Virus record (IMG/VR): IMGVR_UViG_2917413769_000005
DNA: 30,838 bases
Direction: 5' to 3' (one strand)
Source: a virus
Lineage: Duplodnaviria > Heunggongvirae > Uroviricota > Caudoviricetes
Within the stretch, counting starts at the first letter, position 1. Every line of letters starts with the position of its first letter. The notes beneath the pieces are model-generated. The model was not told the DNA's origin. It saw only the letters and a program-made list of their open reading frames with translations, and searched no databases. Both the position numbers and the translations under genes were made by a program. Positions 1-30,838 of this stretch are shown in pieces.

Positions 1-384
1 TCACTCATCAGCGCCGCACTTATCTCTGTAGCTAGAAGGTACTGGCTCGCTAAATCGGGTATAGATTTTTTTATCTGTTACATAGTATGAAACGCCAGCT
101 GAAAATATACCTTTGGGTTTCATGCTGATTTTCATGATGAATGGAGAAAATCCTTCATAGGCTCCGAAGCCATTTTTTCCATTGATCTGGCCGCATACGT
201 AGCCAACAGTAGCGCCTTCCGATGATTGCTCAGTCTGAACAAATCTTAAATATCTAAATTTAACGCTATCTGGATCCCTAACGTCAGTTGCTATTTCCTT
301 CTTACCTAATTCAACTGCTTTTTCTGCGCTTGGCTTGCATCCAACGAGAGAAACCAAAGCCAGTATTAACAACACCTTTTTCAT
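1..384 (-). CDS. small secreted lipoprotein of unknown function (moron-like or flanking gene)
   Basis: 127-aa ORF. The N-terminus MKKVLLILALVSLVGC is a type II signal peptide with an L-V-G-C lipobox. The region is visibly more AT-rich than the phage backbone. SD-like GGGATAGGGA lies upstream of the ATG. Confidence 0.7.
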   Translation of the reverse strand: MKKVLLILALVSLVGCKPSAEKAVELGKKEIATDVRDPDSVKFRYLRFVQTEQSSEGATVGYVCGQINGKNGFGAYEGFSPFIMKISMKPKGIFSAGVSYYVTDKKIYTRFSEPVPSSYRDKCGADE

Positions 385-402
385 ATCCCTATCCCATCAT
401 CG

Positions 403-430
403 CTATTAATATGCTGACCGATGTTATCAA
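403..430 (-). promoter_or_regulatory. candidate sigma70 promoter for the lipoprotein gene
   Basis: Minus strand reads TTGATA (425-430), a 16-nt spacer, then TAATAG (403-408), about 20 nt upstream of the ATG at 384. Confidence 0.4.
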
Positions 431-467
431 AGATATTTTCTCTGGAGAAAGCGTTTTACTTGAAGTT

Positions 468-496
468 GCCCCCGCACTGAATGGATTTACGGGGGC
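468..496. other. GC-rich hairpin downstream of ogr (weak terminator candidate)
   Basis: GCCCCCG (468-474) pairs with CGGGGGC (490-496) around a 15-nt loop. There is no convincing U-tract on the minus strand and only GCTTT on the plus strand. Confidence 0.3.
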
Positions 497-509
497 GCTT
501 TGACTATGG

Positions 510-758
510 TCAGAGAGCCAGATTAAGCTGGTCTCTGCCGTAATGTGATGCCGGGAAGGCATCGCGGGGGATGAAGTCAGGCGGTAGCGATGCAACACCT
601 GCGCGTTTTGTTACTTCCCTTTCCACACTGTTAAGCGTGGTGAATGACCGGCTACATTCCAGATTCTGACACTGGTGATATTGCCGGATTGTCATATCGG
701 TTATTTTACGGCTGGTACGTGTGCGGGCCATAGCGCCGCAAAATGGACATCTGAACAT
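510..758 (-). CDS. ogr: Ogr/Delta-family zinc-finger late transcription activator
   Basis: MFRCPFCGAMARTRTSRKITDMTIRQYHQCQNLECSRSF matches the P2 Ogr C-x2-C...C-x4-C zinc-finger pattern (P2: MFHCPLCQHAAHARTSRYITD...YHQCQNVNCSATF). Start placed at the ATG at 758, preceded by GGGGAG. The ORF-track start at 791 is probably too long. Confidence 0.9.
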   Translation of the reverse strand: MFRCPFCGAMARTRTSRKITDMTIRQYHQCQNLECSRSFTTLNSVEREVTKRAGVASLPPDFIPRDAFPASHYGRDQLNLAL

Positions 759-797
759 AATGATGGCTCCCCTGTGGGAGTTGAACTCCATTTCATT

Positions 798-1934
798 TTA
801 TTCAGTTTCCGCGATCCAGTCAGGTATTTTCGCTTCCAGCTCCAGCCGGGTGGTAAAACCGCTGTCGTCTATGACGTGCTCAGCACGCGCAATGATCCAA
901 TCCTGATTATCTATTTCATCCTTAAAACCACTTACCGTGACGTGCATTTCCGGGTAAAGCTCAGCGCGGCCACGCGCCAGGGTGATCGAAAACTCTGCTG
1001 CGCCACGCTGAAGCTGTTGCCACTTTGCCGCCGCCGCACGTTTCGCCGCCTCTTCATTCTGGTAGGTTTTGCGCAGCACATAAACGTTACCGTCTGCGCC
1101 CTCCATGTAATCGCCCTCGCGGCTGCTGCTCTTCTCTTTTTTGGGCTTTGCAGGTTTGCGGCGCTTAACGCTGACCTTTTTCTTTTTGCCAAAATTCAGA
1201 TCCAGCCAGTAAGCCCGGACGCCGGTATAGGCATCCCGATCGGCAATACGAAAGCGATGCCGGTCGCCACTTGTGCGATCAATACTGGCAGAGGGGAGCG
1301 CCTTCCCGTCAGCGGTCACACCACCACCCGGCAGGATAAACAGCAGACTGCCGTTCTTGACGGTGGCAATTGCGCCCAGCATGTCCGCCATGCGAGTAAG
1401 GAATGACATATCGCTTTCCTGCGTCTGGTCGGCGTGATCAATCTCAATATCTATGAGCATTTCACTGATCTGCGCCTTCAGTCCGTAGCGGTGCGCTATT
1501 GCCGACACAACTCGCTCAACGGTCACGTCATGCCATGAGACTTCGCGCTTTACGTTGAATTCTTCACGAAAATCAGCGCTGCGGGCAGTAACGCCAATGG
1601 TATCTGCCGGGCCTTCGTGGGAAACCTCGTCAACCGTGTACAGCCCCTTGTAAATCAGCGGTTCACCCAGCCAGCCAAATGATACGGCAAGCTCAGCCCC
1701 GCGCGGCGGCAGTGCAACCATACCGTCACTGTCATCAATGGAAATAGATAGCTGATCAGCATCAAAGCCCCTGTTGTCCGTCAGTGACAACGACATGATC
1801 CGATCATCAAGCTGCGTCAGTACCTTGCCGCCCATCGTAATGTTGAATCCCGGACTTTTTACCGCTTCGGTCAGTGAATCGTTATAACTGCTGACTGCGT
1901 CGTTAAGTGATTTGGTCAGGTCTGTAAGTGCCAT
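798..1934 (-). CDS. D: tail protein gpD (late control D family)
   Basis: 378 aa. LSLTDNRGFDADQLSISIDDSDG, ARSADFR...SWHD, QESDMSFLTR, a lysine-rich KKKKVSVKRRKPAKPKKEK stretch and GFTTRLELE are collinear with P2 gpD. SD AAGGGGGA lies before the ATG. Confidence 0.9.
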   Translation of the reverse strand: MALTDLTKSLNDAVSSYNDSLTEAVKSPGFNITMGGKVLTQLDDRIMSLSLTDNRGFDADQLSISIDDSDGMVALPPRGAELAVSFGWLGEPLIYKGLYTVDEVSHEGPADTIGVTARSADFREEFNVKREVSWHDVTVERVVSAIAHRYGLKAQISEMLIDIEIDHADQTQESDMSFLTRMADMLGAIATVKNGSLLFILPGGGVTADGKALPSASIDRTSGDRHRFRIADRDAYTGVRAYWLDLNFGKKKKVSVKRRKPAKPKKEKSSSREGDYMEGADGNVYVLRKTYQNEEAAKRAAAAKWQQLQRGAAEFSITLARGRAELYPEMHVTVSGFKDEIDNQDWIIARAEHVIDDSGFTTRLELEAKIPDWIAETE

Positions 1935-1987
1935 GCTTTCCCCCTTCTTCCGGCGAAGGATCCCACGCGCGCGGGAGATACCAAATC

Positions 1988-2060
1988 GGTTTTTGTTGTC
2001 ACCGTCCTGCCAGACCCGTAATAGCGTGAGTGGCGGTCAAACATGGGGGATTATCACTGC
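1988..2060 (+). promoter_or_regulatory. candidate Ogr-dependent late promoter for FI-FII-E-T-U (PF-like), possibly shared with divergent D/ogr
   Basis: GGTTTTTGTTGTCACCGTCCTGCCAGACC (1988-2016) contains TGT-N12-AGA (1997-2014). This is one mismatch from the P2/P4 late-promoter box TGT-N12-ACA. The -10-like GATTAT at 2049-2054 puts the box centre near -55. A near-identical box occurs at 18035-18062. Confidence 0.5.
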
Positions 2061-2087
2061 GAACTCAATAACGTAATGGTGGAAACT

Positions 2088-3269
2088 ATGGCGGAAGATC
2101 GCTTTCATGGTGCCCGCATCCGGGAGAATACCGACCTTGTGGCGGCTATCAATGACATTGAATCGAATGTCATTGGGGTCGTCGCCGTGGCGGATGATGC
2201 CGATGCGGAAGCCTTTCCCCTGAATACCCCCGTGTTAGTGACGCGGGTTAACAACGTGCTGGGTAAGGCGGGTAAAACCGGCTCCCTGTACAAAACGCTT
2301 AAGGCCATCGCTGACCAGACCAGCCCGAAGGTGATCGTTGTGCGCGTGGCAGCAGCTACGGAAGAGGAAGGCGGTAAAACGCAGGCACAGCTTATCATGG
2401 GCGGCACGGCAGAAGACGGCAGCTATACCGGCATGTACGCATTCCTGACGGCAGAACAGAAGGTCGGCTATCGTCCGCGCATTCTGGCTGTGCCGGGATA
2501 CGACACGGAAGAAGTGACCTCCGCGTTGTGCGTCATTGCGCAAAACCTGCGCGCGTTTGTCTATGCCAGTTGTTACGGCTGTAAGACGATGGCGGAAGCC
2601 ATCACCTATCGCGCAACCTTCGCCTACCGCGAACTTATGCTTATCTGGCCTGATTTCATCGCCTATAACCCGCTGACCGGAGAAAACGAAACCTTCCCGG
2701 CCCCGGCGTATGCCTGCGGCCTGCGTGCGCTGATTGACAACAATCAGGGCTGGCATAAATCGCTTTCCAACGTATCAGTCAACAACGTGCTGGGTATTTC
2801 TCAGGATGTTTTCTGGTCGCTTCAGGCAGAAGACAGCGACGCGAACGAACTGAACAACAAGGAGATCACGACGCTCATCAAGCGTAACGGATTCCGGTTC
2901 TGGGGAAACCGCGTCACGGATACCAAAGATTACATCTTTGAGGTTTATACCCGTACCGCCCAGATTCTGGCTGACAGCATTGCGGAAGCGCAGTTTGAGG
3001 CCATTGACGAACCGCTTACCCCAGCGAACGTCAAGGACGTGGTGAGCGGTATCAGCGGGAAACTCAGCTCGCTGGTGACGCAGGGGCGGCTAATCGGCGC
3101 TGAATGCTGGTTTGATATCCTGGATAACCCGACAACCGGGCTTCGACAGGGTCAGGTGCGCATTCGCTATAAATATACGCCGGTTCCGCCGATGGAGGAT
3201 CTGACGATGTACCAGACCTTCACCGATGAATACTTTGAATCGGCGTTCTCTTCGCTGGGAGGTGCATAA
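2088..3269 (+). CDS. FI: contractile tail sheath protein gpFI
   Basis: DADAEAFPLNTPVL, RPRILAVPGYDT, LRAFVYASCYGCKT, QGWHKSLSNVSVNNVLGIS, GFRFWGNR and YKYTPVPPMEDLT track P2 FI. Start chosen at MAEDRFHGARI (GGTGGA SD); the ORF-track start at 2043 looks too far upstream. Confidence 0.9.
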   Translation: MAEDRFHGARIRENTDLVAAINDIESNVIGVVAVADDADAEAFPLNTPVLVTRVNNVLGKAGKTGSLYKTLKAIADQTSPKVIVVRVAAATEEEGGKTQAQLIMGGTAEDGSYTGMYAFLTAEQKVGYRPRILAVPGYDTEEVTSALCVIAQNLRAFVYASCYGCKTMAEAITYRATFAYRELMLIWPDFIAYNPLTGENETFPAPAYACGLRALIDNNQGWHKSLSNVSVNNVLGISQDVFWSLQAEDSDANELNNKEITTLIKRNGFRFWGNRVTDTKDYIFEVYTRTAQILADSIAEAQFEAIDEPLTPANVKDVVSGISGKLSSLVTQGRLIGAECWFDILDNPTTGLRQGQVRIRYKYTPVPPMEDLTMYQTFTDEYFESAFSSLGGA

Positions 3270-3785
3270 ATGGCGGTTCCCCACAAACTGCGCCTGTTCA
3301 CCTGCTTTGTGAACGGCAGCAACTGCATCGGCAAAGTCTCTTCCGTGACGCTGCCAAAGCTGACACGTAAAACGGAAGACTTTCAGGGCGGCGGGATGAT
3401 TGGATCCGCTGCGGTGGATCTCGGTCTGGACAGTGGCGCGCTGGATACCACGATGGTGGTTGGCGGTCTGGTTCAGTCGCTTCTGCTGAACTACTGCGGC
3501 GATATCGACGAGACCCGCTTCCGCTTCGCCGGCGAGTATTACACCGATGGTGAAAGCCTGCTGGTTGAGGTCGAACTGCGCGGCCGCATCACCGAAATGG
3601 ACGGCGGTGAAAGCAAGCAGGGAGAAGACACCTCCGTCAGCTACACGATGAAGAACACCTACTACAAGCTCACCATCGACGATAAGCCGTTGTTTGAGTT
3701 TGATCTGCTGAACTTCATCTACAAGAAAGACGGCAAGAATATCTACCCTGACCGCATTACGTCTGCGCTGGGAATGGGTAACTGA
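3270..3785 (+). CDS. FII: tail tube protein gpFII
   Basis: MAVPHKLRLFTCFVNG...VTLPKLTRKTEDFQGGGM...VDLGLD...GESKQGEDTS closely parallels P2 FII. The ATG directly follows the FI TAA. Confidence 0.9.
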   Translation: MAVPHKLRLFTCFVNGSNCIGKVSSVTLPKLTRKTEDFQGGGMIGSAAVDLGLDSGALDTTMVVGGLVQSLLLNYCGDIDETRFRFAGEYYTDGESLLVEVELRGRITEMDGGESKQGEDTSVSYTMKNTYYKLTIDDKPLFEFDLLNFIYKKDGKNIYPDRITSALGMGN

Positions 3786-3833
3786 TTAACCTGATAAGTG
3801 GCGGCACACCCGTGCCGCCCGGAGTATTCAACA

Positions 3834-4151
3834 ATGAGCAAAAAAAACGATAACGCCATTACGCTGGCAAAACCCGTTGTTCGCGGCGATGAGAAAATTA
3901 CTCAGGTAACGATCACTGATGAGATCAAACAGGCTGGTTCCCTGCGCGGGCTGAAGCTGGTTAACGTGATGAATATGGATGTGGATTCAGTAGCGATATT
4001 GCTGACCCGCGTCACGTCACCGCGCCTCAAACAAACCGAGATCAACGAAATGGATACCCGTGATTTTGTCAGCCTGTCAGAAGCGCTCGTCCCTTTTTTG
4101 ACGCCTGCGGGGTCTGGAGCATCGAACGAGGCGGAGACGGAGAATCAGTAA
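3834..4151 (+). CDS. E: tail assembly chaperone gpE
   Basis: MSKKNDNAITLAKPVVRGDEKITQVTI..., with GGAG 10 nt upstream of the ATG at 3834. It holds the P2 gpE position between the tube and tape-measure genes. Confidence 0.85.
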   Translation: MSKKNDNAITLAKPVVRGDEKITQVTITDEIKQAGSLRGLKLVNVMNMDVDSVAILLTRVTSPRLKQTEINEMDTRDFVSLSEALVPFLTPAGSGASNEAETENQ

Positions 4152-4312
4152 CACTCCTGCGGTTCGACCTGATCGACGATCTGGTCGCTGATATCGCGGT
4201 TGTTTTCAACTGGCCGCCCTCTGAAGTCTTCACGATGGAACTGGGCGAAGTCATAGCCTGGCGTGAGCGGGCGGCTGTCCGAAGTGGAGCCAGTGACAGT
4301 GAAAAGCCTTAA
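3834..4312 (+). CDS. E': gpE+E' tail assembly chaperone made by programmed -1 frameshift
   Basis: Slippery TTTTTTG at 4094-4100 in the E frame. My hand translation of the -1 frame from 4100 gives DACGVWSIERGGDGESVTLLRFDLIDDLVADIAVVFNWPPSEVFTMELGEVIAWRERAAVRSG...KP, stopping at TAA 4310-4312. This is a typical E' extension overlapping the start of T. Confidence 0.75.
4094..4100 (+). promoter_or_regulatory. -1 ribosomal frameshift slippery heptamer (E/E')
   Basis: T6G heptamer, the same sequence as recalled for the P2 E/E' site, positioned near the end of E. Confidence 0.75.
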
Positions 4313-6797
4313 TATCCGCGTCGCGTTCAGCGCGATCGATAAACTTACCCGCCCGGTCAATGCCGCCCGCCAGAGTGCGGGCGGTTTGTCTGAATCCCTC
4401 AAAAAAACGCAATCCAGCATTAAAGATCTGGACAGCCAGTCCCGCACGTTCAACCGTCTGCGCGACAGCGTACAAAAGACCTCTCGCAAAATTGACGAAG
4501 CCAGCCGGACGCTTGAAGGGCTGAATCAGGCGCAGCGGGAAGGTACACAGCTTACAGACAAGCAAAAAGCACATATGGCAGCACTGGCCGCAAAGCTGGA
4601 GCGCCTTAACTCTGCACGCACGCAGGAAATGGTTAAGCTGCGTGCTGCCTCACAGGCGCTGCGCAGCCACGGCGTTTCACTGGTCGGCAGTGATCGCACC
4701 ATTCAGAGCGCGATACGTCGAACCGAACAGTACAACCAGACGCTGGAGCGGGAACGGCGACAGCTTGCCGCTGTCACACAGGCACGGGCGCGCTATGACC
4801 AGATGCAGCAAACAGCGGGTAAACTTCGCGGCGGTGGCACGATGGCCGTTGCCGGGGCCACTGCTGCCGGTTACGCAGCGGGACGCTTCTTATCCCCCGC
4901 TGTTGGGTTTGACCGGGAAATGTCCCGCGTGCAGGCGCTGACCCGTATAGATAAAAGCTCAACAGACTTTTCAGCACTTCGTGAACAGGCCAAAAAGCTG
5001 GGCGCTGAAACGCAGTTCACCACGACTGACGCCGCCAGCGGGCAGGCGTTTCTCGCTATGGCCGGTTTCACTCCGCAGGCCATTCAGGCAGCACTGCCCG
5101 GCGTGCTCAATATGGCACTGGCCGGTGGCATGGATTTAGGTGAAAGCGCCGATATCAGCTCAAACATCCTGTCTCAGTTCCGCCTCGATCCCAAAGAAAT
5201 GGATCGCGTCAGTGACGTATTAACTGGCGCGTTCACACGTACCAACACCGATCTGCAAAATATCGGTGAGGCTATGAAGTACGCCGGGACAGGTCTTTCC
5301 AATCTTGGCGTCAGTGTTGAACAGACAACAGCCATGATCGGCGTGATGGCAAACGTTGGCCTGCGCGGGAGTATCGCCGGGACAGGATTACAGGCCGCGT
5401 TTTCACGCCTTGCCGCGCCAACCGGCAGGGCAAAAACCGCTCTCAAAGAACTGGGAGTAGACGTTGCTGATGCCACGGGGAAAATGCGCCCTGCTGAAGA
5501 GGTTCTCACTGAACTCTATAAAAAGATCAGCAAGTACGGCGATACCGACAAGCTCTCTTTCTTTAAAGATATCGCCGGTGAAGAGGCGTCAAAGTCATTG
5601 CAGGCACTGGTTATGTCAGCCGGGAGCGGCGAACTTCAAAAGCTGCTGGAAGCACTGAAAAACGCCAAAGGTGAGGCACAGAAAGCCGCCAAAATAATGG
5701 CGGATAACCTTGATGGCGATCTCAAGAATCTGGACAGCGCATGGGAAGGGTTTCGCATCCAGATTAACGATCTCGTCGATAACCAGCTTCGCGCCCTGAC
5801 TCAGGGGCTGAGTGATGTTGTGGGGAATATGACGCAGTGGGCGAAGGAGAATCCGAAGCTCGCTCAATCCCTGCTGGTTGTCGGCGGCAGCATTCTGGCA
5901 CTGACCGCCGCCATTGGCGGCACATCGCTGGCGATCGGCCTGCTGATGGGGCCACTGGCTAAACTCCAGTTAGGTTTTACCCTATTGACAGGGGGCGCAA
6001 CCGGAACAATCTCCGCCCTACGAACGCTCGGAACAGCTTCCGGCCCGGCAATGGCAAGTGTGCGCGGTTGGGGGCCTGTTCTCACATCAATGCTTAGTAA
6101 GCTGCGAGGCATATCGATCATCACGCCCGGCATTCGTGCCGGTCTTATGGGTGCGTTTCTTTCCCCAGGGGCTGCATTAGGATCTCTGTTCAAAAACATC
6201 GGAATGCTCGCTCTTCGCCTGACAGGCTTTACGACCATATGGAGCATTATCACGACCTCAGTATCTGTACTGGGTGCAGCGCTCTCACTTCTACTTAGTC
6301 CGATTGGTCTGATAGCGGCGGCTTTTATCGCTGCCGGATTGCTAATCTGGAGATTCTGGGAGCCGATAAGAGCCTTTTTCACCGGTTTTTTCAGCGGAGT
6401 TATGCAGCAACTGGCACCTTTCCGTGATGCCTTTTTCCCTTTGACGCTGGCCTTCTCAGCAATAGCCAAAGTCGTTGGTGAAGTCTGGGACTGGTTTGTA
6501 AAACTCTTATCACCTGTGGAAAGTAGCCGTGAATCCCTTGATAAATGCGCATCAGCAGGGGAAACATTCGGTAAAGTCCTGGGTAGCGCCCTTCAGTTGC
6601 TGCTATTACCTCTGACAACCCTCATGGAAGGCATTGGCTGGGTACTGGAAAAACTCGGCCTTATCCCTTCTGGTCTGGAAGCTGCACGCCTGAAAGCTGA
6701 AAGCCTTAAAAAAGACCCTGTTATGTGGGAGTGGGATCCGCAGCAGAAAAAAAATGGTGCAAAAGGGATGGAACTGGTCGCCAGTCTCATCAGGTAA
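4263..6797 (+). CDS. T: tail tape measure protein gpT, N-terminal about 5/6 (reading frame ends just after an A8 run)
   Basis: 844-aa ORF with coiled-coil N-terminal repeats and a central TMP core (AETQFTTTDAASGQAFLAMAGF, MKYAGTGLSNLGV, IGVMANVGLRGSIAGTGL). A long hydrophobic Gly/Ala/Leu-rich segment follows. The true start is uncertain: GTG 4263, or GTG 4299 preceded by GGAG. Confidence 0.85.
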   Translation: MSGRLSEVEPVTVKSLNIRVAFSAIDKLTRPVNAARQSAGGLSESLKKTQSSIKDLDSQSRTFNRLRDSVQKTSRKIDEASRTLEGLNQAQREGTQLTDKQKAHMAALAAKLERLNSARTQEMVKLRAASQALRSHGVSLVGSDRTIQSAIRRTEQYNQTLERERRQLAAVTQARARYDQMQQTAGKLRGGGTMAVAGATAAGYAAGRFLSPAVGFDREMSRVQALTRIDKSSTDFSALREQAKKLGAETQFTTTDAASGQAFLAMAGFTPQAIQAALPGVLNMALAGGMDLGESADISSNILSQFRLDPKEMDRVSDVLTGAFTRTNTDLQNIGEAMKYAGTGLSNLGVSVEQTTAMIGVMANVGLRGSIAGTGLQAAFSRLAAPTGRAKTALKELGVDVADATGKMRPAEEVLTELYKKISKYGDTDKLSFFKDIAGEEASKSLQALVMSAGSGELQKLLEALKNAKGEAQKAAKIMADNLDGDLKNLDSAWEGFRIQINDLVDNQLRALTQGLSDVVGNMTQWAKENPKLAQSLLVVGGSILALTAAIGGTSLAIGLLMGPLAKLQLGFTLLTGGATGTISALRTLGTASGPAMASVRGWGPVLTSMLSKLRGISIITPGIRAGLMGAFLSPGAALGSLFKNIGMLALRLTGFTTIWSIITTSVSVLGAALSLLLSPIGLIAAAFIAAGLLIWRFWEPIRAFFTGFFSGVMQQLAPFRDAFFPLTLAFSAIAKVVGEVWDWFVKLLSPVESSRESLDKCASAGETFGKVLGSALQLLLLPLTTLMEGIGWVLEKLGLIPSGLEAARLKAESLKKDPVMWEWDPQQKKNGAKGMELVASLIR

Positions 6798-7281
6798 AAA
6801 CAATAACGGGAATACACCCCCGCCCGGAACGCCGCAACCCACATCACCGCTGACCGGCGATAACGGCACTATGCGTCGATTGCAGAACATCGACAGCAAC
6901 ACCAAAGCGACAGCCGACAACACGAAGAAGATCGGCCCCGGCGATATTGTATTTAAAAACCTGCCGCGTGCTCTGGCCGTTCGTGGGGAATGGAAAGAAT
7001 CGCAGCTGGCCAGCACGGTCAGGAACAACGGGTTAAGCGCACGCCCCGCAGTGGTGGCGGCATCGCTTCCCGTAAAACAGGCGGAACTTCCGCCAGTCAG
7101 CCGCAGCGCCAACAATATACCGGTTGCCACTGGCGGCTTTACGGGAGAAATCCACGTACACCTGCACGGCGTTGACCGGCAGGACGCGCGCGAAATTGGC
7201 CGCATTGCTGCCGACGCGGTGAATGCCGAAATTGCCCGCCTTGCGCGGCTTAATCGCGGCAGTTTCAAAGACAGAGATTAA
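6754..7281 (+). CDS. T: tape measure protein C-terminal segment, in the +1 frame relative to 4263-6797
   Basis: 175-aa ORF starting inside the A8 run. GDIVFKNLPRALAVRG...GEIHVHLHG...RLNRGSFKDRD looks like the usual C-terminus of P2-type tape-measure proteins. Removing one A from 6747-6754 fuses the two ORFs. Confidence 0.7.
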   Translation: MVQKGWNWSPVSSGKNNNGNTPPPGTPQPTSPLTGDNGTMRRLQNIDSNTKATADNTKKIGPGDIVFKNLPRALAVRGEWKESQLASTVRNNGLSARPAVVAASLPVKQAELPPVSRSANNIPVATGGFTGEIHVHLHGVDRQDAREIGRIAADAVNAEIARLARLNRGSFKDRD

Positions 7282-7295
7282 GGGGAGGCAACATT

Positions 7296-7784
7296 ATGAT
7301 GATGATATATGGGATGTTCGTTTTTGAACTGAAGACGCTGCCTTACCAGCAACTGCGCCACTCGCTGAACTGGCGTCATGTGAAGAATGATCGCATCAAC
7401 CGATCGGCAAAATGGCAGTACATCGGCGCAGGTGAGACGCAGATCAACCTTGATGGAGTGCTCTACCCTGAAATTACAGGCGGAGACGTATCTCTTACCG
7501 TGCTGGCAACGCAGGCATACACTGGGCGTCCGTGGCCTTTAATCAGCGGCGCGGGGCAGATTTACGGGATGTATGTGCTGACCGGACTACAGGCCACGCA
7601 TACGGAATTTGACCGCTACGGAAAGGCGAAAAAAATAGAGTTTTCGATCAGCTTCCAGCGCTGCGATGAAGACCTGCGCGAACGCCTGCAAGCGTCGTCT
7701 GTTGGCGATCTGCTTTCAGGGCTGAAGGATAAAGCCACGTCCGCCTATAATTCTGCCAGTAGTACGCTGTCGGGCCTGTTCTGA
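7296..7784 (+). CDS. U: tail protein gpU
   Basis: MMMIYGMFVFELKTLPYQQLRHSLNWRH...GVLYPEITGG resembles P2 gpU. A strong SD (AAGGGGAGG) lies upstream. Confidence 0.85.
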   Translation: MMMIYGMFVFELKTLPYQQLRHSLNWRHVKNDRINRSAKWQYIGAGETQINLDGVLYPEITGGDVSLTVLATQAYTGRPWPLISGAGQIYGMYVLTGLQATHTEFDRYGKAKKIEFSISFQRCDEDLRERLQASSVGDLLSGLKDKATSAYNSASSTLSGLF

Positions 7785-7801
7785 CTGCACCCCATAAAAC
7801 T

Positions 7802-7822
7802 AAAGCGGGCTTTGCCCGCTTT
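7802..7822. terminator. bidirectional rho-independent terminator between convergent U and G
   Basis: AAAGCGGGC (7802-7810), a TTT loop, then GCCCGCTTT (7814-7822). T-runs follow the stem on both strands (TTTATCTT on the plus strand, TTTAGTTTTAT on the minus strand). Confidence 0.8.
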
Positions 7823-7936
7823 ATCTTCCGGAACACACCGCCATAACTGACTGTGCTACAGCACCGTTAAAAATGACTGTACTCGATACGCACGGCCAGC
7901 ACGGTTATAACCGGCCATACGTGCCGGAATGAAAAC

Positions 7937-8533
7937 TTATTCCGGCTTATCCGGCCAGATGATATCCGGCGCTTTTGACGTGTCCACCGCCTGCACGGCT
8001 TTGATGTAGTGCATCCAGACGATCAGGCTAGTTTTATCTTCATCGCTGATAATGCCTAACTGTAGCTCCGTCTGCCAGAGACTGATCGTTGCCTGACCCC
8101 CACTCAATAACGCTGTTTTCTGTTGCTCTGCCGCTTCCACGTCCGCCGCGTGCTGCGCTTTGGTATCCGTCACCCACTCGCTACCGTTCCACGTATCGTA
8201 TGGCGTAGACGGTGCCAGCGTAGTGGTTTTTTCCGGATAATCACCCGGCGCAGTAATGGAAACCTCTTCACCTGTTTCAGTGCTGTATACCGTTTCGCCA
8301 CGATGATCAGCAACGTATTCCCACGCTTTCAAATCGGCTGTCCGGCAAATAGCCGAACCGGCTTTAGCCTCGCCCGGGGCGTCAGTACAGGAATTTGCGG
8401 GAAGACCTACTCCTATAGCCAAATACTCAACTGATGAAGAAAGGTATTCTCGCGTCTCGCCCTCGTAGTTAAACACTGTGATTTCACCTGCCACCGTGGC
8501 AATAAGTTCACTGTTTAATTTTGCCTGCGTCAT
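7937..8533 (-). CDS. G: tail fibre assembly protein (gpG/Tfa family)
   Basis: 198 aa. It sits immediately downstream of the fibre gene with an overlapping ATGA junction. The C-terminal ...QTELQLGIISDEDKTSLIVWMHYIKAVQAVD... is typical of Tfa chaperones. Confidence 0.8.
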   Translation of the reverse strand: MTQAKLNSELIATVAGEITVFNYEGETREYLSSSVEYLAIGVGLPANSCTDAPGEAKAGSAICRTADLKAWEYVADHRGETVYSTETGEEVSITAPGDYPEKTTTLAPSTPYDTWNGSEWVTDTKAQHAADVEAAEQQKTALLSGGQATISLWQTELQLGIISDEDKTSLIVWMHYIKAVQAVDTSKAPDIIWPDKPE

Positions 8534-9555
8534 TATGCGGCCCTCACAATGTAGTTAAACGCGACGTTACGTGGGCGTGTTTCCGCGCCGCCAGTATTGC
8601 CAACCCGGCCTTTTGTATGCAACGTAGGTGAAGCAATCAAAGTTCCGGGCGCTGCCGCGTCAATCCCTCGCCCTTGCACGTATGTTGATTTAACGATTAC
8701 CCCGATATCCCATTCATCCGTAGTATCGTAACCTTCATTTGCCACGATAATATGTCGGTGCTTTTCCAGCATTCCCAATTCTGTACTTAACAAACCCCGA
8801 CCAGAGTTGACACCGCGCCCATCATCCCAGCCCCGCAAAAATTCGCCTCGCAGATCTGGCAATTTGCCAGTTGAGTAAACTTTTGCCAGCTTCGGATATT
8901 TTGCTGTATCAAATGTTGCGCCGTTACACTTTAACCACCCCTCTGGAGGCGTTGCCTGCGGCCACGGAAGCGGAAAGCCCACAGGGATATATTTATCAAT
9001 ATCCGCTGTTTTGAGATATTGGGGGTGCGGGTCAGCGGCGGCAAGATGTGCGGCCAGTTGCTGATCCACATATGCCTTCACTTCAATAACGGCATCATCA
9101 ACATATTTACGGGTTGCCAGCACCACGGACGGATCGATTTTCAGCGTTACCGCCTCGGTACTGCTGACGATCAGGATTACGCGAATGACCTGCACGCGCC
9201 CGCTGCCTTCCTGCAACTGCGGTTTGTAGGTCTCAGCACAGTTGGCAACCGCAATCATATCGCCGTCTTTATCAAACAGGCCGATCTCACGGATCCACCA
9301 CCCGCCCACGTCTTCAGGTATAACCTGTTCCGCAATAATCTGATTGGTGTTTACGGGATCGATAGTCAGCATGTTCAGTTGCGCGCGGCGCAGCTCATGC
9401 GTCAGCGCGGTTTGTGCCGGGTTCGGTGTCGGCAGCACACCATTGCCATCACCCACGGCCATCTGGGTGATCTCAACCTTCGCACCCAATGCCGTGGCGT
9501 TTGCCAGCTTTGCCGCCCCGATGTTGGTTAACAGGGCAAAATATTTAGTCGCCAC
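8533..9555 (-). CDS. H: tail fibre protein gpH (short form with C-terminal tail-collar-like domain)
   Basis: The N-terminus (V)ATKYFALLTNIGAAKLANATALG...MAVGDGNG...WWIREIGLFDKDGDMIAVANCAETYKPQLQEGSG matches the conserved P2 H N-terminal domain. The C-terminus LPDLRGEFLRGWDDGRG...NVAFNYIVRA looks like a phage tail collar domain. Start taken as GTG 9555, overlapping the I stop. Confidence 0.8.
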   Translation of the reverse strand: MATKYFALLTNIGAAKLANATALGAKVEITQMAVGDGNGVLPTPNPAQTALTHELRRAQLNMLTIDPVNTNQIIAEQVIPEDVGGWWIREIGLFDKDGDMIAVANCAETYKPQLQEGSGRVQVIRVILIVSSTEAVTLKIDPSVVLATRKYVDDAVIEVKAYVDQQLAAHLAAADPHPQYLKTADIDKYIPVGFPLPWPQATPPEGWLKCNGATFDTAKYPKLAKVYSTGKLPDLRGEFLRGWDDGRGVNSGRGLLSTELGMLEKHRHIIVANEGYDTTDEWDIGVIVKSTYVQGRGIDAAAPGTLIASPTLHTKGRVGNTGGAETRPRNVAFNYIVRAA

Positions 9556-10159
9556 TTGCGATCTCCACGGTATCAATTAAATGGACTGCCGCGCCGGTGT
9601 AGTCACCACCGCCCACGGATATGGTTTCCGGAAAATAAGGGTAAACGGTCAGCGTATCGCCGATATAACATCCCGCCCCGACTTCGATATACCCCTGCGA
9701 CTGAAGCGAAAGGGACAGGCCAGTCAGGTGGCGACTTCTCGGCTTTGCATCGTCAATAAGGCGCTCAAGCTCAAGATAGGTTTCCTCCGTAATCCCCTGT
9801 TCCTGAATACCGATTTCAAGCTTGAATGTTCCCGGTTCTTCGCCGCTTTGCCACCACTCGATCACGCGCAGCAGAAAGCCGAAAGGTTCAACGACGCGGC
9901 GCAAAGCGGAAATGGTGCCCTTCTGACGGTGAACCAGCCAGGAAGCTTTAATCACCTGCCGTTTAGTCTGTTCTGACCAGTTCTTATCCCAGCGGTCAAC
10001 AGACAGCGCCCAGGCGAGATAAGGCAGAAGATCAGCCGGACATTCGTCCGGGTTCCACAGCTTGCGCAGGTCAACAGGAATATCGGTAAGCCGTTCCGTC
10101 ACCTTCTCCGTACTGCGCATAAAACCGCTGGCCGAAGGCGGCAGCATGTTGTTATTCAT
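9545..10159 (-). CDS. I: baseplate/tail fibre attachment protein gpI
   Basis: LWNPDECPADLLPYLAWALSVDRWD...KGTISALRRVVEPFGF...PGTFKLEIG...DAKPRSRHL is collinear with P2 gpI. The ATG at 10159 overlaps the J stop (ATGAATAA). Confidence 0.85.
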   Translation of the reverse strand: MNNNMLPPSASGFMRSTEKVTERLTDIPVDLRKLWNPDECPADLLPYLAWALSVDRWDKNWSEQTKRQVIKASWLVHRQKGTISALRRVVEPFGFLLRVIEWWQSGEEPGTFKLEIGIQEQGITEETYLELERLIDDAKPRSRHLTGLSLSLQSQGYIEVGAGCYIGDTLTVYPYFPETISVGGGDYTGAAVHLIDTVEIASGD

Positions 10160-11048
10160 CGGTGCCCCCAGTCTCGATCGTGAAGGACTCACACCGCGCC
10201 GCCTGCGTATCGGCGATCACAATATCGCTGGCAGGCTCCAGCAGTTCTACCCTCTGCACGCCCTGAACATGCAGCGCCGCCATAATGGCTGAGCGGGCAA
10301 CGTCACGGCCAATCTTGCCCTGCTGATTCAGCCAGGACTGAAGCGCGTCCTGCGCGGCGGTATGGATTGGTTCAGACTCCGGGCCGGGGTAGAAATACAG
10401 CAGCGCATTGATCTGATAATTCACTATCTCCGCTGCCTGAACGGTCAGACGATCGGCAACGGGGCGCTTATCGTCAGCAGACAGCGCTTTATCCACCGTC
10501 GCCAGCAATTCCGCACTGGCAGTGCCGTCGCCTTCGGTGGACAGCACAGAGACCACCACCACGGCAGGCGACGGGCTGATCGCTTTGGCGTCCGCCACTT
10601 TGCCGCTGGCACTTTTGGCAAAATATTCATATGCGCCAGTTGGCCCCGCCACGCTTAGCCCTTCAAACGCAGCCTGCGCCCGCAAACGCAGTGCGGTATC
10701 ACTTTCCGTTACCGCGTCAGTAGTTGCCGTCTCCGGGTTGATGATCAGGCGTTCGGTGTTCAGGTTGCCCGCGAGATTATCAAGATCGGACGATACGGCA
10801 TGGCTCAACATGCACGCCGCCGCGCCATCATTAATCCGCTGCCTGAGCATCATTTCACGGTAGGCAACCACCTGGGCGATCACGTTCAGCGGTTCGGATT
10901 CCAGCTCCAGCGCGGCGGCAACAGAAACCTGCTGTTCCTGCGGGAATGCCGCCAGCATGACGGCTTTGACCTCGCTGAGAATGACTTCAAAGTCCAGCAC
11001 TTCGATAATTTGCGGCTGCGGTAGCTGCGATAAATCAACTGTTGCCAT
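10152..11048 (-). CDS. J: baseplate wedge protein gpJ
   Basis: MATVDLSQLPQPQIIEVLDFEVIL...AFEGLSVAGPTGAYEY...RPVADRLTVQAAEIVNYQINALLYFYPGPESEPI...HVQGVQRVEL resembles P2 gpJ. AGGAG lies 8 nt upstream of the ATG at 11048. Confidence 0.9.
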   Translation of the reverse strand: MATVDLSQLPQPQIIEVLDFEVILSEVKAVMLAAFPQEQQVSVAAALELESEPLNVIAQVVAYREMMLRQRINDGAAACMLSHAVSSDLDNLAGNLNTERLIINPETATTDAVTESDTALRLRAQAAFEGLSVAGPTGAYEYFAKSASGKVADAKAISPSPAVVVVSVLSTEGDGTASAELLATVDKALSADDKRPVADRLTVQAAEIVNYQINALLYFYPGPESEPIHTAAQDALQSWLNQQGKIGRDVARSAIMAALHVQGVQRVELLEPASDIVIADTQAARCESFTIETGGTDE

Positions 11049-11403
11049 TGCTGCCACTCCTGAGCGTCAGCGCACTGCCTGCCGTCTGCATGGTTTCGGT
11101 GATAATGCCGACCAGTTCAGCGGTGACAACGCCATCCTTTGAATAACTGATATTGATGCCGTTCAGGGCAATACGCGGCTCCCACATCGTCAGGGCGATC
11201 ACCGCCGCACTCATACATTGCAGGCGCGTCACTTCGTTTTGCGGTTCATCCAGCAGATCGGGGATCATGCTGCCATAATCCCGCCGCATCACCCGGCTTG
11301 CCAGCGGCGTGGTCAGTATGTCGCGCACTGAATTCCACAGCTGATCGGTATCGGTAAGCTGGCCCGTGCCGTCCGGGTTCATGCCAATATAGCGGACTGT
11401 CAT
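11035..11403 (-). CDS. W: baseplate wedge protein gpW (GPW/gp25 family)
   Basis: MTVRYIGMN...ILTTPLASRVMRRDYGS...WEPRI resembles P2 gpW. Confidence 0.9.
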   Translation of the reverse strand: MTVRYIGMNPDGTGQLTDTDQLWNSVRDILTTPLASRVMRRDYGSMIPDLLDEPQNEVTRLQCMSAAVIALTMWEPRIALNGINISYSKDGVVTAELVGIITETMQTAGSALTLRSGSNGNS

Positions 11404-11981
11404 TTCGGCCCCCCGGTGTTGCTGCTGCCACCCTGCACACCACTATGTACGTGCGAATGAACCGTCACCCCGTTAGACGTAAGCGATCCGCCAGAATGGG
11501 TAACATTGCCCTTCATCGTGCCGCCCTCCGACAGTTCGAACGTCCGCGCTTTCAGATGGTCGGTACATTCTACAATCGGTGTTTCAAGCGTGACGCTGGC
11601 AGAGGCTTTGATATGTGCTGTCTTCATGCCCTGCGCTTCCAGCGCGCTGGCTTCTGCGTCATAGCGGAAAGAGGCTCCGTCTGGCGCTGTCAGCACAATC
11701 TCTTTCAGGCTGCTGCCCGGCGCAGGGTTGTCACTGCTGTAGAGACTGCCGATAATGACCGCTGTTTCAGGGTTGCCACCGATACAGCCCAGCCAGACCT
11801 GCTCACCCACGGAAGGCGGCACCCAGATACTGAATGCTCCGGCGCGCGTGGTGTTCCAGCGCAGCCAGTCGGTCTGAAGCTCGCCGCTTTGCACGCGCAC
11901 GCGCCAGCTCTCTTCATCAACAGCAATAACGACGCCGACGCGGAGGATATTTTCCAGCAGGCGGATCAGTTCAGCGCTCAT
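11400..11981 (-). CDS. V: baseplate central spike protein gpV
   Basis: RVQSGELQTDWLRW...WVPPSVGEQV...GSLYSSDNPAP...HSHVHSGVQGGSSNTGGP is collinear with P2 gpV. Confidence 0.9.
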   Translation of the reverse strand: MSAELIRLLENILRVGVVIAVDEESWRVRVQSGELQTDWLRWNTTRAGAFSIWVPPSVGEQVWLGCIGGNPETAVIIGSLYSSDNPAPGSSLKEIVLTAPDGASFRYDAEASALEAQGMKTAHIKASASVTLETPIVECTDHLKARTFELSEGGTMKGNVTHSGGSLTSNGVTVHSHVHSGVQGGSSNTGGPK

Positions 11982-12616
11982 CGTGCGGCACTCCCCAGGC
12001 TGTTAACCACCTGTTCCGTAATCATCCGCTCATCGCCAGCGGTAAAGCCCAGCAGCTCACGCACCGGATATTTAGCAAAGGCACCCGGCCCGACCTGATC
12101 GCGCTGGCCGTACTGGTGCACACGCGCAATGCGTGCCACCACACCGTCATAACCCACGGAAGTGCCGCCAGCATCAGCGCGCATTTTGAGAAAGCGATAG
12201 CTGCGCAGCCTCTGAAACATCGGCACTTTCTTTGCGGTGCTGCGGCGCACTGAGCGTGTATTGATCTCGATGTAACGCTCAATGTCGCTGCGGTAAAAGG
12301 TGCGAATATCGTTGCGCTCTTCGTCAAAGCCGGTAATGGTTCGCCCGTATTTTCCCCGGCCACCGTGCCAGTTTTTGAGGCGGCGGATCTCGCCCTGCCA
12401 GACAAACACAATGCCCTGTTGAGAACGTAGCACCCGGCGACGGCGGGCAGGATATGGCGAGCCTTCCGGGTTTTGCTGGGCTTTAATGCGCTGTTGCTGG
12501 CTCTTTCGCAGTGCCTGACCAACCGCGCGGGCGGTGCGAATACGTCCGGCCTGAGAGGTGCCCGCCAGTATGTCGCTGAAGACCTGATCCAGCTCACGGA
12601 AGAGATCGTTACTCAT
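11978..12616 (-). CDS. S: tail completion / virion morphogenesis protein gpS (long variant, 212 aa)
   Basis: QQQRIKAQQNPEGSPYPARR ... ARVHQYGQRDQV...YPVRELLGFTAGDERMI matches the gpS family pattern. ATGA-type overlaps occur with both R and V. Confidence 0.8.
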   Translation of the reverse strand: MSNDLFRELDQVFSDILAGTSQAGRIRTARAVGQALRKSQQQRIKAQQNPEGSPYPARRRRVLRSQQGIVFVWQGEIRRLKNWHGGRGKYGRTITGFDEERNDIRTFYRSDIERYIEINTRSVRRSTAKKVPMFQRLRSYRFLKMRADAGGTSVGYDGVVARIARVHQYGQRDQVGPGAFAKYPVRELLGFTAGDERMITEQVVNSLGSAAR

Positions 12617-13079
12617 GGGCGTCAGCCTCCCATGTCACATCCTCAAAGATGGCGCTCCAGTCACCGTCCGCTGACGGGATGCGCGGCTTAGGCTCCGGCA
12701 AATGTTCCGCGCGCGGAATGCCGTTTGCATCCAGAGTGACCTTCACGCGCTCGCGCAGCGGCATTTCAAAAAGAATGTCGGCGGTATCGTCGTTGTTGAT
12801 AAGGGTCGTAAATTTAATGTCCCGGTTTTTCTCAGGGTTCAGCAGCAGATCGGGCTGGTTGTGCCAGAGCCATGCCATTAACGGCAACGTGAAATCATCA
12901 ATATCACCGGCAAAATTCATCACAAACAGCACCAGGGTATAACGGTACATAAACGATGGTGTTTCGCCGGTCGTCTCGATGTTCCCTTCTTCCACAAAAA
13001 CGGTGAAGGCTTCAGGGTTGGCCCTGCACCATTTGTTAGCGCTGGTCAGGGTCTCGCGGAGTGAATCAGCTTTTAACAT
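12609..13079 (-). CDS. R: tail completion protein gpR
   Basis: MLKADSLRETLTSA...NPEAFTVFVEEGNI...MAWLWHNQPDLL parallels P2 gpR (MLKPDSLRRALTDA...NPDMLRIFVDNGSI...LAWLRENQPDI). Confidence 0.85.
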   Translation of the reverse strand: MLKADSLRETLTSANKWCRANPEAFTVFVEEGNIETTGETPSFMYRYTLVLFVMNFAGDIDDFTLPLMAWLWHNQPDLLLNPEKNRDIKFTTLINNDDTADILFEMPLRERVKVTLDANGIPRAEHLPEPKPRIPSADGDWSAIFEDVTWEADAHE

Positions 13080-13083
13080 GGCG

Positions 13084-14322: not shown

Positions 14323-14331
14323 GGCAACCTC

Positions 14332-15056: not shown

Positions 15057-15075
15057 GCACTTATCTCCCATAAAT

Positions 15076-15135
15076 CAGGCGGTGGGCGGGTGGTTAAAAG
15101 ACCGTAAACGGGCAGATATCCACCCGCGCCGCCTG
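15076..15135 (-). other. large GC-rich stem-loop in the M-L intergenic spacer
   Basis: CAGGCGGTGGGCGGGTGG (15076-15093) pairs with CCACCCGCGCCGCCTG (15120-15135). That gives about 16 bp with a 2-nt bulge and a 26-nt loop, lying just upstream of the L ribosome-binding site. Confidence 0.5.
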
Positions 15136-19857: not shown

Positions 19858-20915
19858 TGAAGAAGCGCACCTACAAAAACAAACACACCGCCAGCAGTGG
19901 CAGTGCCGGACAGCCTGATATCTCTGACGCGCTCAGAAGCGATCCGGCGCTCAGCGCCTTCACGTTTGACGGGCCATATTCGGTAACAGACGGCTATGAT
20001 CTGCTGGACAGCATGTGCTGCGTCGATAACGGCCGGTACTACGAGACGCCAATAGACTGGAAGGGGTTAACCCGTGCGTTCGCACAGTCCCCACTGCATC
20101 AGTCGGCGCTTTACTTCAAACGCAATGTGCTGACCGGGTGCTATATCCCTCATCCGTTACTCTCGCGGCAGGCCTTCTCTGCGTTTGCGCTGGACTGGTT
20201 TGTCTTCGGCAATGCCTATCTTGAGCGTCGGTCTAATCGCCTGGGAGAGCCGCTAAAACTTAAGCATGTTCCGGCGCTGAACACGCGACGGGGAAGCGAT
20301 CTTGATACCTACTGGTTTATCCGGCAGTGGAAAGATGAATATGAGTTCAAGGCGGGCGAGGTCTGCCACATCATGAACCCGGACATTCATCAGGAAATCT
20401 ACGGTATGCCGGAATACATGGGGGCGCTTCTGTCCGCCAGCCTGTCACATTCCGCCGATAAATTCCGCAAACTCTATTACGACAACGGCTCCCATGCCGG
20501 ATGCATTCTCTATGTCGGTTCGGAGAAGGTGGATCAGGAAAGCATAAAGGTGGTGCAAAAAACGCTGTCACAGGCCAGAGGGAAAGGCTCCTTCAAAAAC
20601 GTGCTGATCCACGCGCCGGGTGGCGGCAAAGACGGCGTGCAACTGTTGCCGTTCAGCCAGATATCGGCAAAGGATGAGTTTCTTAACATCAAATCAGCAA
20701 CGCGCAACGATTTGCGCGACGCTCACCGCATCCCGCCGCAACTGATGGGCGCAATGCCGGAAGGCAACGGATCGCTCGGTGATGTTGAGAAGGCTGCGCG
20801 TGTCTTCGCCATCAACGAAATGTTGCCCGTGATGGAAGCAATGAAGGGCGTCAATGACTGGCTCGGTCAGGAAGTGATCCGCTTTAATCCCTACGCTCTA
20901 CTCAAAGACGAGTGA
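19857..20915 (+). CDS. Q: portal protein gpQ
   Basis: 352 aa, translationally coupled to P (TGATGA). It is in the P2 Q position next to the cos region, and its length and composition are consistent with the P2 portal family. Confidence 0.85.
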   Translation: MKKRTYKNKHTASSGSAGQPDISDALRSDPALSAFTFDGPYSVTDGYDLLDSMCCVDNGRYYETPIDWKGLTRAFAQSPLHQSALYFKRNVLTGCYIPHPLLSRQAFSAFALDWFVFGNAYLERRSNRLGEPLKLKHVPALNTRRGSDLDTYWFIRQWKDEYEFKAGEVCHIMNPDIHQEIYGMPEYMGALLSASLSHSADKFRKLYYDNGSHAGCILYVGSEKVDQESIKVVQKTLSQARGKGSFKNVLIHAPGGGKDGVQLLPFSQISAKDEFLNIKSATRNDLRDAHRIPPQLMGAMPEGNGSLGDVEKAARVFAINEMLPVMEAMKGVNDWLGQEVIRFNPYALLKDE

Positions 20916-20925
20916 CCCGCCCCAC

Positions 20926-20960
20926 CCGCCGCACATCCTGCGGCGGTTCTCCTTCAGTTA
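20926..20960 (+). terminator. rho-independent terminator after Q
   Basis: CCGCCGCA (20926-20933), a CATCC loop, then TGCGGCGG (20939-20946), followed by a T-rich TTCTCCTTCAGTTATTTTC tail. Confidence 0.6.
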
Positions 20961-21167
20961 TTTTCAATTCCCGTATGACCGGCCACCACCTGAGCACCAC
21001 TCAGCACAACCTTAACCCCCCTCACTCAGAGCGCATTAGCGCCACTCTGGCAGGCGCAATCTGCATTTTACCCCGAACACATCCAGAAGTGAGAAAAACG
21101 CGCGGAGAAGGCGAAAAAGGCCGGAGAATGGCAATTAAAGGCATCACCTCCCGACCCTCCGTCGCGT

Positions 21168-21186
21168 GGGCTGTTCCCCCGTCACC
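21168..21186. other. candidate cos cohesive-end sequence
   Basis: The reverse complement GGTGACGGGGGAACAGCCC resembles the recalled P2 19-nt cohesive end GGCGAGGCGGGGAAAGCAC (about 13/19 ungapped). It lies about 255 nt past the Q stop, similar to the P2 cos-Q distance. This rests on memory only and was not searched. Confidence 0.35.
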
Positions 21187-21282
21187 TGCGCGCGACATTT
21201 GCTTCGTTTTTTGTGCATTTCCCGATCTGGGGGCAGACCGCGCCACCACAGGGCGGAAAGGTCATAAACAGCATCAAAAAAA

Positions 21283-21309
21283 TTGTGCAAATTTGTGCAC
21301 TATTGTGCG
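21283..21309. repeat. three helically phased TTGTGC(A/G) direct repeats near cos
   Basis: TTGTGCA at 21283 and 21293 and TTGTGCG at 21303, spaced exactly 10 bp apart. A fourth TTGTGCA lies at 21211-21217. Confidence 0.6.
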
Positions 21310-21366
21310 ACAGAGAAAGAAGGCCCGGAGGGAAGAAAAGCCGCCTTTAAAAGACAGCTTCTCATG

Positions 21367-21750
21367 TCAGTGGGGATTGATGGATAGTCGGCGCAAAACA
21401 GCAGCAACATCGCCACTGCTTAATGAACCCGTCGCTGCGGATACGGTCAGTTCTTCCAGTTCATTACCTTCATCACGGATATCAATACCATTGCGCTTTA
21501 AAAAAGCCATCGCAACGAAAAAGGCGGTTCGCTTATTGCCGTCATTGAAGATATGACCACGCGAAATGGCGACGAGATACATCGCAGCGAGTTCGTGAAT
21601 ATCCTCAACGCCTTCATAGTAAAGCTGGTTCTGAACACGATAAATGATCGCCTCTGCTCTTCCCGGTTCTGGCATCCCCTGAACGCCGGGCAAAGCTGCA
21701 AGCAGACGATCATGAAACGCTATCACCTCCTGAGCGCTGATCCATTTCAT
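21367..21750 (-). CDS. doc: Doc toxin (Fic-fold kinase, death-on-curing family)
   Basis: 127 aa with HIFNDGNKRTAF, matching the Doc variant of the Fic motif H-x-F-x-[DE]-[AG]-N-K-R. It is coupled to the upstream antitoxin gene by an ATGA overlap. Confidence 0.85.
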   Translation of the reverse strand: MKWISAQEVIAFHDRLLAALPGVQGMPEPGRAEAIIYRVQNQLYYEGVEDIHELAAMYLVAISRGHIFNDGNKRTAFFVAMAFLKRNGIDIRDEGNELEELTVSAATGSLSSGDVAAVLRRLSINPH

Positions 21751-29857: not shown

Positions 29858-30838
29858 ATGTCGATTAAGAAGCTCGAAGGTGGTCAATATGAAGTAGACG
29901 TGTACCCGCGTGGGCGTAATGGAAAACGCATCCGCAGGCGCTTCGATAAGAAGCAAGAGGCAGTACTTTTTGAGCGGTATGTTGTAGTCAATGCCGACAA
30001 AAAAGAATGGTTAGGCGCGAGCGTAGATCGCCGCACCTTAAGCGAGTTGTTAGATACCTGGTGGTTGCTGTACGGACAAACGCTGGAAAATGGTGAGATT
30101 GAAAAACGGCACCTGAGCAAAACAATCAGGGCGCTGGGAGATCCAGCAGTAAACCGTTTAAGCAAACGTACGATAGCGCAACACCGTAGCCAGCGGCTGG
30201 ATGATGGGATCAGCTCCGCCACAATCAACCGTGATATGTATCGGCTATCAGGTATGTTCAGCGCGCTGATCAAACTGGATGAGTTCAGGAAGGAAAACCC
30301 CTGTAAGGGGCTGGAGCCACTGAAAGAAACGCCGCCAGCCATGACCTATCTCACAAAATCAGAGATCGGCAAATTGCTGGATACCCTGACAGGGGATGAT
30401 CGACGCGTAGCGCTGCTATGTCTCAGTACGGGTGCTCGCTGGGGCGAAGGAAGTACGTTACGGGGAGAGCAGGTTAATCACGGGCGTGTGACGTTCCTCA
30501 AAACCAAAAACGGGAAAAAGCGAACGGTTCCGATATCGGAAGATCTGGAGAAAGAGATCAAGACCAGCGACACAGGGCCACTGTTCAAAGTTGATTATGA
30601 AAACTTCTGCGAACGGCTCAAAAAGGTTAAGCCCGATCTTCCACGTGGTCAGGCTACGCATGTGCTTCGGCACACGTTCGCAAGTTGGTTCATGATGAAT
30701 GGGGGGAATATTATTGCGTTACAGCAGATTCTGGGGCACGCCAGCATACAGCAGACAATGGTTTATGCACACCTGGCCCCTGATTATCTGAAGCACGCAG
30801 TAACGTTAAACCCACTTGGTGGAGGGCTGACGATTTGA
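29858..30838 (+). CDS. int: tyrosine recombinase / phage integrase
   Basis: 326 aa. ARWGE (Arg I region), HVLRHTFAS (H-x-x-R box) and GHASIQQTMVYAHL (catalytic Tyr) are present. GGAGGG SD lies upstream. It is downstream of C, as in P2. Confidence 0.9.
   Translation: MSIKKLEGGQYEVDVYPRGRNGKRIRRRFDKKQEAVLFERYVVVNADKKEWLGASVDRRTLSELLDTWWLLYGQTLENGEIEKRHLSKTIRALGDPAVNRLSKRTIAQHRSQRLDDGISSATINRDMYRLSGMFSALIKLDEFRKENPCKGLEPLKETPPAMTYLTKSEIGKLLDTLTGDDRRVALLCLSTGARWGEGSTLRGEQVNHGRVTFLKTKNGKKRTVPISEDLEKEIKTSDTGPLFKVDYENFCERLKKVKPDLPRGQATHVLRHTFASWFMMNGGNIIALQQILGHASIQQTMVYAHLAPDYLKHAVTLNPLGGGLTI

Follow-up and report, generated by a model that had tools for sequence, protein, structure and literature searches.

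The frameshift that splits the tail tape-measure gene gpT of this prophage is most probably an artefact of the Ion Torrent draft assembly from which the record derives rather than a trait of the phage, and we put the probability of this explanation at about 0.88. It is the most likely one because a second assembly of the host strain, Escherichia sp. E1130, and the close relatives of the prophage have seven A residues (A7) instead of eight (A8) at the point of the frame break and one intact gene. In the following, the window means the whole stretch of 30,838 nucleotides that was analysed.

Structure of the interrupted tape-measure gene

The gene lies between the chaperone pair gpE/E' and gpU, which is the position expected for a P2-like tape measure. 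Its product is matched by PF10145 (PhageMin_Tail, E=2e-53) and, over residues 1-992 of the repaired protein, by PHROG 28 ('tail length tape measure protein', E=8.5e-179). In the window, gpT appears as two open reading frames (4299/4263..6797 and 6754..7281) that are split at a run of eight A residues (AAAAAAAA, 6747-6754). The upstream frame 4263..6797, which encodes 844 amino acids from the first GTG, meets a stop at 6795-6797 because the extra A shifts the gpT frame; its C-terminal end reads ...WDPQQKKNGAKGMELVASLIR, and the last 14 residues before the stop (NGAKGMELVASLIR) are out of frame. The downstream frame continues in the +1 phase for 175 codons, the last A of the run being the A of its ATG, and contains the segments GDIVFKNLP, GEIHVHLHG and RLNRGSFKDRD.

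If one A is removed, a single open frame of 1005 amino acids from the GTG at 4263 results. Translated from 4299 to 7281, with the GTG at 4299 taken as the gpT start as annotated in relatives, the repaired gene is identical to WP_138211388.1 in 993/993 residues, and this 993-aa tape-measure protein is itself on record for strain E1130. The initial annotation was accurate with regard to the A8 run, the stop, the +1 frame reaching to 7281 and a single extra A as the cause of the split, and its order of a tape-measure gene followed by gpU agrees with PF10145, PHROG 28 and PF06995. The distance between gpT and gpU, given there as 15 nt, has to be corrected to 14 nt (7282-7295), as the ATG of gpU is located at 7296.

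The A8 run itself is statistically unremarkable, and only the frame break in the PDIL-derived record deserves attention; two A8 runs and five homopolymers of length 7 were counted in the window. All other genes of the prophage are of normal length, i.e. there is no further sign of decay.

Table 1. Features of the tail operon and of the discordant sites (positions in the window)
Feature	Position	Strand	Remarks
Sheath	2043..3269		
Tube	3270..3785		
Tail assembly chaperone gpE	3834..4151	+	
E+E'	3834..4312	+	-1 frameshift product of gpE, 159 aa
Slippery heptamer of gpE/E+E'	4094-4100	+	TTTTTTG
gpT, whole tail tape-measure gene	4299..7281	+	P2-like, Peduoviridae, Novemvirus-like; interrupted by one extra A
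gpT, 5' part as recorded	4299..6797	+	832 aa from GTG 4299, 844 aa from GTG 4263
A8 homopolymer, frame-break site	6747..6754	+	A7 in VATL, Logan SRR6148301 and 11 related loci
gpT, 3' part	6754..7281	+	+1 frame, 175 codons; not an independent gene
gpU tail protein	7296..7784	+	PF06995 Phage_P2_GpU, E=3.7e-39
A5/A4 discordant site	21094..21098	+	Non-coding, after portal gene; A5 in window and Logan, A4 in VATL

Comparison of the E1130 assemblies

Over positions 1-17281 the window is 100% identical to contig PDIL01000022.1 (assembly GCA_004745435.1) of Escherichia sp. E1130. This draft (PDIL00000000, SRX3260321) was obtained from single-end Ion Torrent reads of 35-400 nt at 50x with MIRA and SPAdes (PMC6639607). 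Indels in homopolymers are the dominant error of Ion Torrent, the accuracy drops with the length of the run, and such errors cause frameshifts in assemblies (PMC3623719). In long homopolymers under-calls are commoner than over-calls (Bragg et al. 2013, PMC3623719).

A second E1130 assembly (GCA_005781065.1, contig VATL01000001.1) spans all 30,838 bases of the window without a single substitution and differs from it at two sites only, each of them having one A fewer in VATL. One is the run in gpT at 6747-6754, which is A8 in the window and A7 in VATL, and the other is located at 21094-21098. In addition, the Logan assembly of SRR6148301 has A7 at 6747-6754 and no substitutions, together with a private CC>C at 5333. 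We infer that SRR6148301 is a run of strain E1130, since the exact gpA protein of the prophage is on record on three contigs only, namely those of PDIL, VATL and SRR6148301. There is one record of the exact 175-aa ORF, a 'hypothetical protein' of Escherichia sp. E1130 (WP_240782964.1). Each of the three assemblies has one homopolymer-length call of its own, as would be expected if these calls are noise. However, not every long run is miscounted on the platform, as the three assemblies agree on the second A8 of the window (3840-3847).

The discordant site at 21094-21098 is flanked by the portal gene and a Fic/Doc toxin gene. Complete E. coli genomes and phage phiT5282H show 92-96% conservation over this stretch, and as a control the site was judged by this DNA conservation in place of coding evidence. 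A 214-aa ORF (20912..21556) was considered as a coding witness and rejected, since neither Pfam nor PHROGs matched it, the oppositely oriented Fic/Doc gene overlaps it and it looks spurious. All independent references (5/5, i.e. four complete E. coli genomes and phiT5282H) have A4. The window is therefore the outlier at both discordant sites, with one extra A each, and VATL matches the independent sequences. That the Logan assembly shares the A5 suggests that the error is present in the reads and fits SRR6148301 being the Ion Torrent run of E1130. On the other hand, A5 could be a real strain difference, the DNA being non-coding at this site.

The frame break in gpT most likely came about as follows. 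On Ion Torrent the length of a homopolymer is derived from signal amplitude and is often miscounted. The PDIL consensus would have gained one extra A, which would have shifted the frame, created the stop at 6795-6797 and made the last 175 codons of gpT look like an ORF of their own. The DNA of E1130 itself most likely has A7, so that the real prophage would encode one intact tape measure of 993 aa, with CAG AAA AAA ATG GTG (Q K K M V) at the junction. The case resembles the homopolymer-length errors of the Ion Torrent or 454 type that give false frameshifts in bacterial drafts (Bragg et al. 2013) in that it consists of a single-base length change in a long A run of an Ion Torrent assembly, is not reproduced in other assemblies of the strain and is accompanied only by assembly differences that also concern homopolymer length. 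It is unlike them in its direction, as an over-call is the rarer event for long runs in Bragg et al. Given the bias towards under-calls it is conceivable that a true A8 was read as A7 by two assemblers, and VATL is not independent if it was reassembled from the same Ion Torrent reads. We gave less weight to A7 as an under-call artefact, since the control site points to over-calling in the window and not to under-calling in VATL.

The junction in related prophages

Among the phages on record, Enterobacter phage phiT5282H (Peduoviridae, Novemvirus) comes closest; it shows 92% nucleotide identity over most of gpT and has the same operon as the window (FI, FII, E/E', T, U). Its tape measure is one ORF of 988 aa, compared to 993 aa in the repaired gpT of the window, and ends 14 nt before gpU; the arrangement recurs in an E. 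coli prophage, likewise with a single tape-measure ORF of 988 aa. At approximately 6300-6820, however, the gpT of the window carries a mosaic segment different from that of phiT5282H, and both the WEWDPQQKKMV motif and the A tract belong to this segment of the window. As arbiters between A7 and A8, phiT5282H and the E. coli prophages were rejected, because they have the other junction allele and the alignment consists of gap blocks only. In a look-up the terminase protein of the prophage, which is widespread, led to unrelated hosts only; the remaining part of the prophage in the other assemblies was reached through the strain-specific gpA.

A search with the hypothetical junction peptide that results from fusion by A7 found proteins of Enterobacter hormaechei, Symbiopectobacterium and Citrobacter in which ...PVMWEWDPQQKKMV... 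is read without interruption. In species-representative genomes a scan yielded 27 loci, 13 of which have the junction motif of the window. In 11 of these 13 loci the tract is A7 and the frame is open, reading WEWDPQQKKMV; they originate from Izhakiella australiensis, Erwinia psidii, Serratia (2 genomes) and three Symbiopectobacterium genomes, with three copies each in S. purcellii and Symbiopectobacterium sp. RP. In Citrobacter youngae the tract is AAAAAG followed by ATG, and gpT is in frame. In Ca. Symbiopectobacterium endolongispinus it is A5, which amounts to a -2 frameshift at the same tract; this is a pseudogene-rich symbiont genome, and its relatives also have broken copies.

This locus is the exception among the 13 that share the junction allele; the other 12, like VATL, have an uninterrupted gpT. 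The A5 is the one off-length at the tract among the related loci, compared to A7 in 11. Given A7 and an open frame in the relatives, A7 with one continuous gene is the state that is both ancestral and functional.

Alternative explanations

The initial annotation had put forward a defective prophage, a homopolymer error of sequencing or assembly and a slippage-prone tract without ranking them, and only the homopolymer error is supported by the evidence. By its own reasoning the case reduces to a simple error if the true genome has A7, which is borne out at the level of assemblies, since VATL and Logan have A7 and the source assembly was made on Ion Torrent, and the proposed comparison of run length in related prophages gave A7 with an open frame in 11 loci. 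In contrast, the orthologues encode one protein and not two separate ones, as had been considered possible, and the view that this site decides whether the prophage makes infectious particles found no support.

That the E1130 prophage really gained an A through strand slippage (A7 to A8), whether fixed or confined to a fraction of the sequenced culture, is improbable in our view, even though A7 runs are natural hot spots of slippage and the under-call bias could make A7 the artefact if the three assemblies share reads. Indels evidently occur at this tract or at least get recorded there, as the A5 of Ca. S. endolongispinus leads to the same wrong frame. However, two of the three assemblies have A7, the exact 175-aa ORF is confined to one contig, and the prophage is otherwise completely intact with no substitutions between the assemblies. 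Moreover, at the other discordant site it is VATL that equals the independent references, while the window again has one A more. If A8 were real, the tape measure would be cut after residue 818, the C-terminal 175 residues would be lost and tails would not be built, so that E1130 would carry a recently inactivated prophage of the ordinary defective type with a single lesion. A more far-reaching version, in which the A7 tract is a recurrent slippage hot spot, A8 in part of the E1130 population and A5 in Ca. S. endolongispinus are both real and the tract acts as a reversible on/off switch or as a preferred first lesion for tails, is very unlikely.

The remaining alternatives take the split as functional, and the orthologues speak against both. 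The real programmed frameshift of the tail operon is that of gpE/E+E' at TTTTTTG; in P2, gpE/gpE+E' reportedly arise by a programmed -1 frameshift, and in the other assemblies the two chaperone ORFs receive PF10109 and PF06528 assignments. The gpT tract resembles this site in being a homopolymeric slippery tract that adjoins it in the same operon. At gpE/E+E', however, the two frames overlap and are conserved in relatives, being offset in every one of them and giving two conserved products, whereas the A tract of gpT is in frame wherever the gene of a relative is intact and therefore neither acts nor qualifies as a recoding site. That transcriptional slippage or +1/-2 ribosomal frameshifting at this tract sets the ratio of truncated to full-length tape measure has thus next to no probability, as recoding needs offset frames in the orthologues. 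It is true that A-runs of such length can support low-level RNA polymerase slippage and that 11 of the 12 intact loci with the junction allele have A7 despite 4-25% nucleotide divergence. AAA AAA is however simply the preferred Lys-Lys coding in enterobacteria, Citrobacter youngae still reads through with AAAAAG ATG, and the junction allele of phiT5282H and the E. coli prophages is wholly devoid of the tract. Nucleotide conservation of the tract beyond Lys-Lys coding was not found, with AAAAAG in Citrobacter and other alleles lacking the tract, and the 80 nt on its 3' side (6755-6834), which were inspected for a stimulatory RNA structure, fold no better than shuffled sequences (z=-0.52). In addition, the 14-residue tail of the 0 frame has no match in the intact relatives. 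Two separate genes, i.e. a shorter tape measure and an independently initiated tail protein of 175 aa, are hardly conceivable either, and this reading was discarded on the basis of the orthologue comparison, all relatives with an intact gene having a single ORF. The 175-aa ORF does have an NCBI annotation, as hypothetical protein WP_240782964.1, and some PHROGs of 'unknown function' match it; those in question (PHROGs 17114, 5431 and 38463) all span the junction on the intact protein. The ATG of this ORF lies inside the A run and is not preceded by a Shine-Dalgarno sequence, and the 175-aa sequence is known from one contig only.

The E1130 prophage is best treated as probably intact, and the platform and other assemblies should be checked before a homopolymer frameshift in a draft is given a biological meaning. 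The 175-aa RefSeq entry WP_240782964.1 is a fragment of the tape measure WP_138211388.1.

Homopolymer-length calls in the three assemblies

A further run in the window, located at 21094-21098, was called differently among the assemblies when these were compared. It is an A5 run in the window record and in the Logan assembly of SRR6148301 and an A4 run in VATL01000001.1, the second assembly of strain E1130, as well as in four complete E. coli genomes and in the Enterobacter phage phiT5282H, and it is probably a second over-call of one A in the window record. The additional A opens an ORF of 214 aa (20912..21556), for which no family match was found and which looks spurious.

The Logan assembly in turn carries a private CC>C deletion, equivalent to window position 5333, which splits the tape-measure gene at a site other than that in the window, into parts of 345 aa and 648 aa; with this deletion, the window record, VATL and Logan each have one private homopolymer-length call. 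The window's other A8 run is the same in all three of them, so that not every long run is miscounted by the platform.

Tape-measure genes in related prophages

The tape-measure gene contains a mosaic segment at approximately 6300-6820. There the window diverges from the phiT5282H/E. coli allele and carries a module, shared by Izhakiella, Erwinia, Serratia, Symbiopectobacterium and Citrobacter prophages, that includes the motif WEWDPQQKKMV. The prophage of Izhakiella australiensis D4N98 (NZ_MRUL01000003.1) shows 96% nucleotide identity over 5 kb of the tail operon (window 3027-8000) and 99% identity to the window in the junction peptide. Its host genome belongs to the Erwiniaceae. For hosts of different families, this is an unusually close match.

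Disrupted tape-measure genes were also found in two genomes of Candidatus Symbiopectobacterium (loci L038 and L040), and their lesions fit either assembly error or the decay of prophages in symbionts restricted to their hosts.

The PHROG families 17114, 5431 and 38463, all three of 'unknown function', match tape-measure proteins in the C-terminal part only (window 6754-7281), and on the intact protein they extend across the junction, i.e. the A-run that splits the gene in the window. Tape-measure fragments are the probable source of these families, and one such fragment is WP_240782964.1, which bears the annotation 'hypothetical protein'.

Gene organization

The programmed frameshift region of the tail chaperones lies directly 5' of the tape-measure gene and overlaps its start, the two products being E with 105 aa and E+E' with 159 aa. 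A comparison of the orientation of window 798-7784 with that of 7937-18003 revealed that the FI-FII-E-T-U block is on the strand opposite to gpD/ogr (798..1934 and upstream) and likewise opposite to the fibre, baseplate and head genes. The block is thus presumably inverted relative to the P2 map, and phiT5282H has the same strand arrangement as the window.

Coordinates of the features discussed
Feature	Position	Remarks
Other A8 run of the window	3840-3847	In frame, start of gpE (MSKKND)
Tail chaperone pair gpE/gpE+E'	3834-4312	Conserved programmed -1 frameshift
Slippery TTTTTTG of gpE/gpE+E'	4094-4100	
A5/A4 site	21094-21098	Non-coding DNA after portal gene
Phd antitoxin and Fic/Doc toxin pair	21367-21970	Cargo, beside portal gene
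Dcm-type (339 aa) and Dam-type (296 aa) DNA methyltransferases	25278-27184	Cargo
Integrase	29858..30838	Right end of window, cut by window end
L038 lesion	3702-3760	A5 (-2), same A tract as window junction
L040 lesions	3440-4060	Frameshift and in-frame stop; carries other allele

The two methyltransferase genes adjoin each other upstream of the gpA replication gene. The prophage insertion is flanked by fieF/pfkA to one side and cpxP/cpxRA to the other, as seen at the window ends and in the loci L003 (1-5700) and L041 (1-5424).
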